Positions 13,716 to 63,654 of a DNA stretch of 64,000 nucleotides are shown here, one piece after another. The position numbers and the translations under genes are program-made. The first letter of the stretch is position 1. Each line of letters begins with the position of its first letter. Source of the DNA: Eledone cirrhosa (lineage: Eukaryota); contig OZ024741.1 in assembly GCA_964016885.1 (NCBI GenBank), positions 297,538,001 to 297,602,000 on the forward strand, read 5' to 3'. The notes beneath the pieces are model-generated. The model did not search any database and was not told the origin of the DNA. It saw nothing but the letters and a program-made list of their open reading frames with translations.

Positions 13716-13817
13716 AAAATACAAAAGTTGTTTTACAGATGGTGACATATTCAAAACTAGAACTTAGCGTTTTAAATTCTGTTTGAAACAGAACTCAAAA
13801 CGCTAAGTTCTAGTTTT
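13716..13817. mobile_element. Small asymmetric foldback insertion in (TA)n
   Basis: Inverted repeat 13753-13817 with an extra 37 bp (13716-13752) on the left arm only. Confidence 0.6.
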
Positions 13818-13872
13818 ATGTGTATATGTATGTATATATACACACACATATATATATATATATATATATATA

Positions 13873-14252
13873 CAAGATCAAAAGATGGTTAAAAGAGTTC
13901 CATGTATTTTATTAGGCGCATTTTAAAAACAAATATCATCATGCGATGACATTTGCGTTTTCGTCAGATAAAATAGGGAGACATGATATGAAGGTTAAAA
14001 AACACTTGTGAATAGTGCAGTTTTAAATCAACATATCCTTCATACCATGTCTCCCTATTTTATCTGATGAAAACGCAAATGTCATCGCATGATGATATTT
14101 GTTTTTGAAATGCGCATAATAAAATACATGGAACTCTTTTAACCATCTTTTGATCTTATATATTATTTATACTCCAGTCCTACAGACTGTAGAGTGCTAC
14201 TTATCCGATATCTGCATTGCTTTATTGTACTACAATAAAACTCACCTCCTAC
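13873..14252. mobile_element. Inverted pair of hammerhead-bearing termini (PLE pLTR-like); tail on the right arm
   Basis: 13874-13993 is the reverse complement of 14037-14157; 14158-14252 is the tail. The same family recurs at 16155-16334. Confidence 0.8.
14056..14126 (+). ncRNA. Minimal type I hammerhead ribozyme
   Basis: TATTTTAT-CTGATGA-[AAACGCAAATGTCATC GCAT GATGATATTTGTTTTT]-GAAA-TGCGCA-TA-ATAAAATA, with a palindromic stem III. The mirror copy at 13905-13975 has GAAA changed to AAAA. Confidence 0.8.
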
Positions 14253-14447
14253 ATATATATATATATACATATACGTCAATACTCATCTTTTTCCATTTCT
14301 CCGAGGGTTCTTAACACCACTATCAGGCTAAATAATTTCTTTAATTTCTTTAGTCAAAATACGGCGATAGCTTACATTTATAATAATTTCAAACCCGCTC
14401 GCTGTTTCGAAAATATTCTTACTTGATATATACATATATATATATAT

Positions 14448-15030
14448 TTTAGTTAATTTTAGTTAATTTTATTGATTTTTTTAGTCGATTCTATTGACTG
14501 ATGAATAGCTTTGTTATATTTAACCATTCTGTCGAGAGCTTTATTCGATTTGTGATATTTTGCATTCTCGCAATATTATACATAACTGAAATCATTCGCC
14601 TAATATAAGTGTTGCCTCCCTTGCTGAACTCCACGTGGGGTCAGTAATAGTCACACTTATGTATAGCATTTGGAGCAAAAACCTGTTGATAAAGTGGCTT
14701 CCTTGTTCAATCATCTTACCAGAAGCCTAACATTCTTTATGTAAGCGGACAGTAATTGATTTATGGAGTCGCAGAAACCCAAATACTGGATTTTACGATC
14801 ACTCCAGGTTTCCGGGTAAATTTTCAATCACATATATTTTTATTGTTTGACCCGAATTACTTGGTCGTTTTTTTTGGCTTTGCGGATGATTTGTTTAACC
14901 ACCATCTCAGTGTGTTTGGCCCTTAACGTATGTTGTAGCTCTGATTCATATGAATCATCGAGCGCTTGCCACACATCTCGGAAGTTGTTTTTCGTTAATT
15001 CCTGAGCTGAGATACGATTCTCGCTAATTT
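14448..15030 (+). mobile_element. Family L repeat (hammerhead-like motif at 14686-14792)
   Basis: Homologous to 55799-56167; ends ..CTCGCTAATTT against (AT)n. Confidence 0.65.
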
Positions 15031-16153
15031 ATATATATATATATATATATATAATATATATATATATATATATATATATATATATATATATATATATATA
15101 TACATATATATATATATATATACATATATATATACATATACATATATATATATATATATACATATACATATACATATATATATATACATATATATATATA
15201 CATATATATATATATATATATATATACATATATATATACATATACATATATATATATATATACATATACATATACATATATATATATACATATATATATA
15301 TATATACATATATATATATATATACATATATATATATATATATATATATACACATATATATATATATATATATATACAATATATATATATATATATATAT
15401 ATATATACACACATATATATATATATATATATATATATATATATATATATATATATATATATACACACATATATATATATATATATATATATATATACAT
15501 ATATATATACACACACATATATATATATATATATATATATATATATACACACATATATATATATATACACACATATATATATATACATATATATATATAT
15601 ATATATATATATACACACATATATATATATATATATATATATATATATATATATATATATATATATATACACACATATATATATATATATACACACATAT
15701 ATATATATATATATACACATATATATATATATATATATATATACACACACATATATATATATATATATATATACACATATATATATATATACACATATAT
15801 ATATATATACACACATATATATATATATATATATATATATATATATATATATATATATATATATATATATACACATATATATATATATACACATATATAT
15901 ATATATATATATACACATATATATATATATATACATATATATATACACATATATATATATACACATATATATATATATATATATACACATATATATATAT
16001 ATACATATATATATACACATATATATATACATATATATACATATATATATATACATATATATACATATATATATATACATATATATATATATATATATAT
16101 ACATATATATATATATATATATGTATATATATATATATACATACATATATATA
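15031..16153. repeat. Degenerate (TA)n/(TACA) tract
   Basis: Seen directly. Confidence 0.98.
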
Positions 16154-16154
16154 T

Positions 16155-16334
16155 TAGAACAAAAGATGGTTAAAAGAGTTCCATGTATTTTATTATGCGC
16201 ATTTCAAAAACAAACATCATCATGCAATAATATTTGTGCTTTCAGTATGTATACTCCAGTCCTACAAACTGTAGAGTGCTTCTTCTCCGATATCTGCATT
16301 GCTTTATTGTACTACAATAAAACTCACCTCCTAC
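16155..16334. mobile_element. Second insertion of the 13873 family: inverted tail-less arm joined to the tail only
   Basis: 16156-16245 matches 13874-13965; 16250-16334 matches the tail 14168-14252. Confidence 0.8.
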
Positions 16335-16462
16335 ATATATATACATATATATATATATACATATATATATATACACACATATATATATATATATATATAT
16401 ATATATATATATATATATATATATATATATATATATATATATATATATATATATATATACAT

Positions 16463-60730: not shown

Positions 60731-60774
60731 AATAAATATATATATATATATATATATATATATGTATATATAAA

Positions 60775-60980
60775 AGTAAAAAACAAAAAAAACAAAAACA
60801 ATAACTAAGAGTGCAGTACAAGCAGTGTTGGTATTAGGTTCACGCTTGAGAGTGGGGGTGGGGGACGACGTTTCGGGCATAAGCCCTTCATCAGATGAAA
60901 GGTGGAAAGGAAAAGAGTTCCGAGAGGGTGTGAGGGGGAGTGGCGGAAAGACTTTAGAAAGGAGGAAAAAAACAACAACA
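60775..60980 (-). mobile_element. Neptune-like PLE 3' terminus with a minimal hammerhead core (60867-60894)
   Basis: The minus strand reads CTGATGA-A-GGGC TTAT GCCC-GAAA-CG-TC; stem I is not evident. Similar to 16740-16940. Confidence 0.65.
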
Positions 60981-61058
60981 TATATATATATATATATATA
61001 TATATATATATATATATATATATATATATATATATATATATATATATATATATATATT

Positions 61059-61369
61059 AGAAAGTGAGGTTTCTTTTACAAAATGAAAAATAACCGAGGT
61101 GTCCTACACGAGTGAAAGTATAAAGAAAAAGAGATGAAATCGAAAATGCAACTGGAGTCTTATTTTTAAAAAAATATATATATATTTATTTGGTTCCTTT
61201 ACCGGTTTCGCAGTTCTTCTGCTTTTCAAAAGGTGAGTGGAGATGGAGGGGCTGTGGTTTTTGAAAAGCAGAAGAACTGCGAAACCGGTAAAGGAACCAA
61301 ATAAATATATATATTTAAAAAAAAATAAGACTCCAGTTGCATTTTCGATTTCATCTCTTTTTCTTTATA
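61059..61369. mobile_element. Asymmetric foldback with a U3-A8 hammerhead (61256-61298, + strand)
   Basis: 61119-61231 is inverted at 61259-61369; TTGAAAA-GCAG AAGAA CTGC-GAAA-CCGG-TA; tail 61059-61118. Confidence 0.8.
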
Positions 61370-61543
61370 TATATATATATATATAAGAGAGTGTTGAATT
61401 TGCTTGAAGCCTTGTGGAATAATAAAATTGGTCGTTTTGGAAGCCAATGCAGATGGGTAAATCTCCGGGTAACAGAATCAGGTGGTAATGATATATATAT
61501 ATATATATATATATATATATATATATATATATATATATATATA

Positions 61544-62917
61544 TATAAGTTTAGGAATAACCAAAGAATGCTTAGAAATACATTGTTTTATTAGCTAACC
61601 GTGTTTCATCCATATCCTGTGGCAGGAATCATCAGAGCCTATAAACAAAAATATATCATAGGTTGCAGACTCCATCAAGCTCTATCACCAGAACAAGGAT
61701 AAAGGACATCAGGGGGGCCCCAAGGCCATCGCCATATAGAAAAACACACAATACATGACGCACATGATGTCATAAAATGCCGTAAAAAATTACATCAAAA
61801 ATTTATCACATACATGGTGCAATAGATGAAATAAGTGAGGGTGTTACTCAGCATGATAAAAAATTAACCCCCCCCCCCCCCAAAAAAAAAAAACAACAAC
61901 AAAACAAAAAAAACAAAGCAAAGCATCGATACATCAATCCACAAGCAGTGCAAATACAGGATGTAAGGCAGAGTATTAGATCTTGCAAGCATGAGTCCGT
62001 GAGAAGAAGAGTTGGTTAGCTGTGGTGCAGCTTTACATGAAGGATTGCCTATAGGAAAGACGGTGCACTCCAGTCATATCGCCTTGTAACGAGTCGACTT
62101 TTCCATATCATACCAACACCCTCCATCCATTGGTTCCAGTTCCAAGAGTTAGGCGATATAATACTATGTCTTCAAAACATACACCCAGAGGATTTCTCCG
62201 CATAGGCAGTCTGTAATAAACACCTTAAATCTAAAATAAAGTAGAGTACGATGAGGTGAAGTAAAGTGGGGTACGTATACAGCCGGCGCTCCAGTGAAGA
62301 AAGTGAAAACAAGGCAAGTCCGCAATATCTGCTGCCTCACAAAGTGCTCACGTTCGGTCACACGACCCAAAGTCCCATGTGACATACACTGTATGGCCGA
62401 GTGGGCATCGAACTAAAGTGCCATACCGTATGCAAATATACCACAGTAAATGTTATTCGTGATGGCTAGTCAGTCACGTACACAGAAAGTGTATATAGAA
62501 AACTCCGCTTACGGAATCACCTATGGCATAGTGAAGGGAAAGCAGTTATGATGTAATTTTTTATGGTATTTTATGACATTATGTGCGTCATGTATTGTGT
62601 GTTTTTCTATATGGCGATGACCTTGCCCCCCCCCCCCCCCTGCTTGTCCTTTATCCTTGTTCTTGTGATAGAGCTTGATGGAGCCTGCAACCTATGATAT
62701 ATTTTTGTTTATAGGCTCTAATGATCCCTGCCATGGTGTATGGATGAAATACTGTTAGCTAATAAAACAATGTATTTCTAAGCACTCTTTGGTTATTCTT
62801 AAACTTATAACGGCTCTGTAGTATACTAGTTATCCTACATTGAGCTAAAACCACACTGTCATACCAAGGGCAATATATCTGCGTGTCTGTGCACATTGAT
62901 ATACTTGTCAACGAAAC
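61544..62917. mobile_element. Asymmetric inverted PLE-like insertion with a hammerhead (61593-61639, - strand)
   Basis: 61544-61797 is inverted at 62549-62809; the minus strand reads GGCT-CTGATGA-TTCC..GGAT-GAAA-CACGG-TT-AGCT; tail 62810-62917. Confidence 0.75.
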
Positions 62918-62934
62918 TATATATATATATATAA

Positions 62935-63654
62935 TTCGTTTCTGAATTTGTTTAGCAAGATTCTTTATCTGAAAACGTGTGTTGAAACCGATATTGTTAT
63001 ACTTTGGGAGGGTCATGTTGCCAATAAGAAACACACGCACCAGTTGCTTTCACTTCAATTTATTATAATAAATTTATAAATTTAGGAATTTATAAATTTC
63101 CGGTTGGTTGGTTGGTTCCACAACCAGATGGTTGTTTATATATTGTCAAAGTTCTTTCGTCACACATTCTGTGACCTCTTCAGTGACTGGGGATTCTTTT
63201 CTTTGTTTTTGTGCCTCTCCTTTGTTCTGTCCTACGCCATTTTGTTTCTGTGTGTGTGTTGTGTGCTCAGTCTGCGCATGCGCCACATCCGGGTGTCTGT
63301 GTGTGTGTGTTTATATTTACAAATAAATAAACGAATATAAACACACACACACAGACACCCGGATGTGGCGCATGCGCAGACTGAGCACACAACACACACA
63401 CAGAAACAAAATGGCGTAGGACAGAACAAAGGAAAGGCACAAAAACAAAGAAAAGAATCCCCAGTCACTGAAGAGGTCACAGAATGTGTGACGAAAGAAC
63501 TTTGACAATATATAAACAACCATCTGGTTGTGGAACCAACCAACCGGAAATTTATAAATTCCTAAATTTATAAATTTATTATAATAAATTGAAGTGAAAG
63601 CAACTGGTGTGTGTTTCTTATTGGCAACATGACCTTCCCAAAGTATAACAACAA
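62935..63654. mobile_element. Inverted pair of family H termini (hammerheads at 63145-63187 on -, 63464-63506 on +)
   Basis: 62991-63317 is inverted at 63334-63651; the tail 62935-62990 is on the left arm only. Confidence 0.9.

Follow-up and report, generated by a model that had tools for sequence, protein, structure and literature searches.

A 64,000-nucleotide stretch of the Eledone cirrhosa genome (contig OZ024741.1, positions 297,538,001 to 297,602,000; hereafter the window) contains insertions in which two arms of the same element are joined head to head, both outer 3' ends face TA-rich repeats, and one arm bears a tail that the other lacks. Those insertion families that are linked to coding sequence are likely Hydra-clade Penelope-like elements (PLEs), as judged by their protein motifs. 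Counting of pair classes in the 3.0-Gb host genome revealed that the one-tail rule is strong, but not absolute. The architecture as such is known, whereas the quantitative pairing rule and the junction signatures are new. They favor programmed twin priming on one RNA, followed by end-joining of the two run-off cDNAs, which is regarded here as the probable origin of these insertions (probability of about 0.7).

Pairing of tailed and tail-less arms

Two families were counted, that at 53698 (family A) and that at 13873 (family B). Pairs of family A were searched for in the whole genome by exact gapped patterns, which detect only short pairs with intact ends. This search yielded 4,016 mixed pairs (98.9%), in which one arm is tailed and the other is tail-less, as well as 24 pairs with a tail/tail pattern and 20 no-tail/no-tail pairs, while about 2,030, 1,017 and 1,013, respectively, would be expected if the arms were independent. 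Tabulation of the three classes, as suggested in the original prediction, thus gave proportions far from random. Among the 24 tail/tail hits, six have full-length tails on both arms, each ending in TA (one duplicated site accounts for two of the six, and one has mirrored flanks), four continue toward the open reading frame (ORF), five run into a tandem piece, and nine have a partial tail. As for the 20 no-tail/no-tail hits, eight adjoin a copy with the same junction, seven lie within mirrored or satellite-like flanks, one is an interrupted mixed pair, and four are unexplained. The arms of a family A pair agree at a subfamily single-nucleotide polymorphism (SNP) in 91 out of 93 pairs. At some loci (L110, L111 and L112, 21 nt; L058, L060, L115 and L124, 8–9 nt), the second arm of family A has a short tail before the TA repeat, a possible trace of minor priming sites within the tail. 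Stubs at L051, L052, L094, L100, L101 and L104 are locally re-duplicated with the same junction within expanding TA-variant satellites.

For family B, the raw pattern counts were 59 mixed, 29 tail/tail and 12 no-tail. These near-random counts were rejected, since inspection reassigned 22 of the 29 tail/tail and three of the 12 no-tail hits to the mixed class. The 22 reassigned tail/tail hits use a second tail-less stop located 9–13 nt past the first one; of the remaining seven, five are tail/tail (three of them clear) and two are complex. All of the 30 inspected hits from the 59 mixed ones were indeed mixed, and nine of the 12 no-tail hits remained no-tail, eight of these being members of an older subfamily, the mixed pairs of which escaped the search pattern and hence were uncounted. 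In the young subfamily, the mixed, tail/tail and no-tail classes stand at 81:5:1 (93% mixed), compared with 43:24:20 expected under independence.

Other families were surveyed de novo in 1,359 islands, taken from the window and from 192 loci (designated L plus a number), a non-random and mostly family A-centred sample in which nested TA runs split islands. Of its 187 inverted islands belonging to other families, 168 are asymmetric by at least 25 nt, 35 of these by more than 200 nt and often compound. The other 19 are near-symmetric: 10 are mixed by eye, three are later duplications, and six are ambiguous. Across families, the tails are about 33–180 nt long. A different result was obtained for a family found at 16740–19207 and 60773–60977, as well as at L168 and L243, which we take to be Neptune-like from its motifs. 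This family has a hammerhead motif and a TA-facing end, but pairing was observed at none of its 17 sampled ends, all of which are single. The rule therefore does not hold strictly for every PLE family in this genome. The strict one-tail rule of the original prediction is accordingly replaced by a near-strict one, valid for family A and the young family B subfamily and failing in the Neptune-like family.

An artefactual origin of the fold-backs, through reads or assembly at TA repeats, has practically no probability. The regions involved are of low complexity, and some of the exceptions lie within mirrored or satellite-like flanks; on the other hand, the arms are mutationally distinct and the asymmetry is family-specific. 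In addition, thousands of discrete ends at both sites, together with some strand-switch joints, are present in raw Illumina reads from two further samples. Since the same two ends recur in raw reads of other samples, they are no assembly artefact, a concern raised in the original prediction. The read numbers at the two ends, being biased by the library cut site, were not used as ratios. Both of the 3' ends of family A have TAT in common with the target.

In the window (33% GC), TA-rich alternating repeats occupy 18,170 of the 64,000 bases and divide it into 55 islands. The original prediction had listed 11 two-copy inverted insertions, and self-alignment of the window revealed clear one-tail inverted pairs at nine of these sites, each flanked by TA-rich runs. 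At the other two (16156 and 26919), the arms do not overlap and the same terminus is not present twice, yet these are one-tail, two-ended insertions as well. The reuse of the internal stop between independent insertions was borne out: 4212 corresponds to 53699, 13874 to 16156, and 26919 to 63651. The orientation of the arms is settled by coding sequence, since a GIY-YIG fragment (40918–41700) and the family A ORF (5404–7562) both read toward TA-facing ends.

Arm boundaries, junctions and the number of templates

For family A, 100 pairs with clean junctions were examined; in these, both arms cluster at 52–62 nt (mode, 58), and arms of this short class never extend beyond about 62 nt. Position -58 corresponds to the A in an initiator-like word (TTAGT) and lies 29 nt below a TATA-like box; we take these two motifs to be promoter elements. 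Among 21 arms with inserted letters at this upper boundary, a C was added first in 14, and both arms were so modified in four insertions. Such a cap-like C would be expected from copying a cap, and a cap G is known to mark full-length L1 copies (PMC11702581). In families 2, 5, 6, 7, 8 and 17, both arms often end at initiator-like words, which in family 2 lie about 31 nt below a TATA-like box.

The second 5' class of family A ends at -17, immediately after the GTC of a predicted type I hammerhead with a U3-A8 core. Both arms end at this predicted cut in 113 pattern hits (97 of the 100 listed), the tail-less arm only in 6–7 of 27, and the tailed arm only in about 21 of 91, the classes being counted by eye from listings with patterns that differ slightly in sensitivity. 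Thus, about 110 pairs are concordant in their 5' class and about 28 are discordant, while independence predicts about 6 and 237, respectively. This sharing of a 5' end class by the two arms, a point absent from the original prediction, argues for one RNA template. Family B has the same two 5' classes, with the upper boundary at about 161 nt and two of 30 copies at its predicted cut, and a third family provided one copy with both arms ending at a predicted cut. When 32 tight palindromes of other families were subjected to the cut-site test, three matched, and two of these look real by eye. The twin-priming reading also suggests that ribozyme-cut RNA serves as a template in vivo.

An asymmetric complex could hold two RNAs, with one subunit copying from the tail end of the first and its partner copying from the internal site of the second; this would equally yield the one-tail bias and untemplated ends. 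It would permit either arm to be longer and would accommodate the approximately 28 discordant pairs; moreover, a dimer has been predicted for the anole protein (PMC11167929). This arrangement is nevertheless unlikely, because it predicts independent 5' ends rather than the concordance observed, and because in 60 of 127 pairs from other families the stops of the two arms lie no more than 25 nt apart, at lengths that differ widely between pairs. The double-cut pairs include several tail variants and hence do not represent one subfamily.

The letters at the junctions of 100 listed double-cut pairs were also informative: 42 junctions are blunt, 11 have one A, 12 have one T, and 10 have A followed by T, while T followed by A never occurs. 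This order indicates an untemplated A on each cDNA. The shared 5' boundary of both arms, with an untemplated A or a cap-like C on each arm, is new here. The cDNA joints show either an overlap of 0–2 nt or short, partly templated inserts. At L130, L140, L090 and L174, the centres contain inserts of 9–22 nt that copy nearby arm sequence, which we take to resemble the templated inserts of polymerase theta.

In 100 pairs of family A, the tail-less arm exceeds the tailed one in length 46 times and falls short of it 31 times, the two being equal in the remaining 23; in the 127 pairs of other families, it is longer in 32 and shorter in 19, the arms agree to within 25 nt in 60, and 16 are undecided. 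A further 732 short mixed copies were found, and in 17 of the 30 inspected the tailed arm stays within the tail. These figures bear on a fold-back route, in which the tail-primed cDNA folds back and copies itself, and the endonuclease cuts or copying stops at a TA-like internal site. Such a route would give one tail per pair, identical arms (as in the SNP agreement above) and equal arm lengths, and the internal stop does resemble the TA target. It cannot, however, give tail-less arms without a counterpart in the tailed arm (the 17 of 30 copies above, and 16156 and 26919 in the window), tail-less arms that are longer (46/100 and 32/127, as well as the long tandem L019-L021/L292), zero-loop centres (42/100), or bases added on both arms. 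As the sole explanation, fold-back is hard to hold, and we consider it highly improbable.

Equally relevant is the variety of junctions, 87 types being found among 110 family A pairs. A few palindromic master copies might have spread as units, similar to miniature inverted-repeat transposable elements or short interspersed elements, their centres being later trimmed by cruciform or hairpin repair. In favor of this, some junctions do recur (in up to four of 110 family A pairs, and one junction in seven of 30 family B copies), and later trimming may shorten either arm. The 87 junction types, the restriction of short-class arms to about 62 nt with clustering at two motif-defined boundaries, the A-then-T and cap-like additions, and the same geometry across dozens of unrelated families leave this explanation with very little probability.

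In the twin-priming model, the protein would cut both strands of (TA)n, and the two target ends would prime on the same RNA, one at its internal and one at its tail-end TAT. The inner primer would usually be first, and the tail-primed reverse transcription would follow, displacing it; to our knowledge, the PLE reverse transcriptase (RT) has no RNase H. Both reactions would run off the 5' end of the RNA, and the two cDNA ends would be joined head to head, host end-joining closing the centre. Judging from the motifs, the 5' boundaries 58 and 17 nt above the internal stop would be the capped start of transcription and the hammerhead cut, respectively. The 190-bp stubs would arise by priming on the mRNA 5' end, the 114-bp stubs by priming on the 3' product of the ribozyme, and the long and tandem copies by priming in a repeat located downstream in read-through or circular RNA. 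With one RNA for both primers, the same site would rarely be used twice and the 5' ends would match. The two programmed priming sites, use of both target ends and joining of the cDNAs assumed in the original prediction are supported by the genome-wide counts and junction signatures, within the near-strict range described and outside the Neptune-like family.

Several points weigh against single-RNA twin priming. Tail/tail pairs do occur (5/87 in family B), and eight of the nine no-tail pairs of family B lie in the older subfamily, the mixed pairs of which escaped the count. In about 28 pairs, only one arm ends at the predicted cut while its partner is long; these fit one RNA only if the RNA was cut between passes or one arm was trimmed. 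Concordant 5' ends are also possible with two RNAs if the cell held one RNA class at a time, and the commonest 17/17 junction is also explicable as a deletion at a CG overlap. The lead of the inner primer is only a tendency, given the longer tailed arms in family A (31 of 100 pairs) and elsewhere (19 of 127). An Rfam search of the window found no hammerhead, giving only microsatellite-driven microRNA matches and nothing near the predicted family A hammerhead, and three RNA pieces folded no better than their shuffles (z-scores of -0.08, 0.45 and -1.35). Finally, in a different PLE clade, no start-site difference between strands was reported, unprocessed RNA was the main substrate, cut RNA was not observed to be used as a template, and no RNA-seq reads ended at the cut (PMC11167929).

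Coding sequence, hammerhead motifs and neighboring elements

The ORF of family A (P0001) contains YRDD and C-terminal VIY..YIG motifs in a 719-aa frame. It further has SDKTG (DKT in place of DKG), RWR where RWK is expected, a CxCX5C linker, and CxxC and CxH around conserved E and N, but no CCHH. A Pfam search left the RT ORF of family A unmatched; 813 relatives of ~700 aa were found. The unit of family A is ~3.5 kb in length. Partial tandem copies (L019-L021, L292) are accompanied by an inverted truncated copy and a one-sided tail, that is, by the pseudo-long terminal repeat (pLTR) arrangement; in the tandem copy L020, the start codon lies 174 nt beyond the internal stop, and the tail continues into the ORF start. 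In a sample of loci, Hydra-type ORF ends were found upstream of eight pair-forming families, family B among the linked ones (at L196), while the remaining families are not so tied. The fragment 40918–41700, included in the tailed arm of the 40355 pair, has motifs resembling the linker and C-terminal motifs of P0001. Of the three families said to be tied to GIY-YIG sequence in the original prediction, the link thus stands for those at 53698 and 40355, while the third piece (18182–18859) belongs to a family outside the 11 listed sites.

A regular-expression search for hammerheads, which was too narrow, gave hits in three of the 12 tested stretches (40355, 61059 and 62935), and cores were seen by eye in three further families (53698, 13873 and 60566). 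The U3-A8 variant of the hammerhead occurs in PLEs (PMC4209133). As to the hammerhead motif that the original prediction had ascribed to most insertions, matches were obtained in part of the families, and no Rfam match was found. The coordinates of the features are presented in Table 1.

Table 1. Inverted insertions and family A features in the window
Feature	Position	Strand	Description	Basis
Family A 3' region	4212..5403	minus	Ends at tail-less internal stop 4212	
Family A predicted hammerhead (U3-A8)	4316-4225	minus	Predicted cut before 4228	Read by eye
Family A predicted promoter	4298, 4269	minus	TATA box 4298, start site 4269	Read by eye
Family A RT + GIY-YIG ORF (P0001)	5404..7562	minus	719 aa; TA run at 7563 removes first codons; Hydra-clade motifs	
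One-tail inverted pair	13717..13816		Tail 13717-13753 (~37 nt); arms ~32 nt	Self-alignment
Family B pair	13874..14249		Tail-less arm starts at 13874; tailed arm ends at 14156; tail 14157-14249 (93 nt)	Self-alignment
Family B pair without overlap	16156..16331		Tail-less arm 16156-16243 and tail-only piece	
Minimal 22-bp pair, 62934 family	26919..26940		11 nt of tail-less end and 11 nt of tail end	
Pair with long tailed arm	40355..41862	minus (tailed arm)	Tail 40355-40519 (~165 nt); tail-less arm 41701-41862 (162 nt); hammerhead-like core on both arms	
One-tail pair	51974..52948		Tail 51974-52020 (47 nt); arms 52021-52211 and 52758-52948	Self-alignment
Family A mini-insertion	53699..53888	minus (tail-less arm), plus (tailed arm)	Tail-less arm 53699-53750 (52 nt); tailed arm 53751-53808 (58 nt), starting at predicted transcription start; tail 53809-53888 (80 nt)	
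One-tail pair	60566..60735		Tail 60566-60602 (37 nt); arms 59 nt	Self-alignment
One-tail pair	61058..61365		Tail ~61058-61118 (~61 nt); hammerhead-like core on both arms	Self-alignment
One-tail pair	61548..62917		Arms 61548-61800 and 62546-62805; tail up to 62917 (108-112 nt)	Self-alignment
One-tail pair	62934..63653		Tail 62934-62993 (58-60 nt); arms ~320 nt; hammerhead core on both arms	Self-alignment

At 47411–47550, a tailed arm of family A begins at the predicted start site and abuts TA without a tail-less arm, and is either one-ended or eroded. The window also harbors an APE-type long interspersed nuclear element (LINE) in four copies of 97–99% identity (19218–22143, 32924–35606, 42205–46244 and 48065–48596), the 3' ends of which adjoin TA runs as well, and a separate LINE at 23195–26419 with a 1,074-aa frame. 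A frameshifted fragment at 348–1698 presumably derives from a non-LTR (long terminal repeat) element with a restriction-like endonuclease, as its motifs suggest. A repeat of 400–600 bp, its ends resembling (TATG)n, is present in three copies (38169–38772, 53929–54527 and 54659–55094), none of which has an inverted partner.

Relation to known elements and significance

The insertion unit of endonuclease-containing (EN+) PLEs, as described in PMC3846280 and PMC8557442, shares with the pairs reported here a 5'-truncated inverted copy, partial tandems, a tail on one end, a pLTR hammerhead (predicted here) and TA-repeat targets. There, the tail is "optional" or occurs "often" and measures 30–40 bp; here, it was counted, is about 33–180 nt long, and belongs to arms with a common 5' boundary. 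Thus, the one-sided tail, which the original prediction had considered undescribed as a rule, is already in print, while the class counts are new. The inverted shape has previously been attributed to self-priming (PMC3846280, Arkhipova 2013) and to endonuclease-mediated resolution (PMC8557442, Craig 2021). A literature search that left older work (Arkhipova 2006, Pyatkov 2004) outside its range found no paper counting pair classes, reporting common arm 5' boundaries or proposing twin priming for PLEs.

With the Hydra clade (PMC8557442), the family A protein shares the C-terminal GIY-YIG, DKT, the CxCX5C linker, CxxC and CxH near the end, the lack of CCHH, and TA insertion. That clade has RWK and is generally under 3 kb, whereas RWR and a longer unit were found here, and the likeness is one of motifs. 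For the anole element Poseidon, two RT start sites bounding the tail and extension of both strands were shown in vitro (PMC11167929, Frangieh 2024); cutting of both DNA strands and an AT-rich target are further features in common. Its start sites lie within the ORF, while those considered here lie in the 5' untranslated region, and the clade is different. The available text of that paper reports neither a pairing of sites with target ends nor an inverted-copy model, although its supplementary figures may bear on the pairing.

The arms of the pairs studied here usually overlap fully, the element itself sets a fixed inner site, and twin priming would be the default route. The twin-priming model was reportedly proposed originally for L1. 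As described in PMC11702581, L1 twin priming likewise involves a second target end that primes inside the same RNA, end-joining of inverted cDNAs and an extra G at the capped start; it is, however, occasional, with a variable inner site beside the first cDNA end and pieces that barely overlap. L1 moreover relies on an APE endonuclease and a poly(A) primer, in contrast to the GIY-YIG protein and the lack of poly(A) found here.

On balance, we lean towards one-RNA twin priming as the default route of these PLEs, with the inverted repeat and the one-sided tail as its direct products, and with capped mRNA and hammerhead-cut RNA both acting as templates in vivo, so that the PLE ribozyme would leave a visible footprint. 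The origin of the inverted repeats and tails, as well as the role of the hammerhead, are described as open in PMC8557442. The counts replace a qualitative "often" by a pairing rule of 99%, and one mechanism would connect the start sites determined in vitro (PMC11167929) with the genomic architecture. Unlike in LINE-type priming, each strand of the two halves of a new copy would first be made from RNA. Predicted start sites could be mapped from the centres of the stubs, and thousands of small palindromes in TA repeats would be explained as by-products of priming on mRNA 5' ends, which is relevant to repeat annotation. Twin priming on one RNA would thereby explain the long-puzzling inverted shape of the PLE class.

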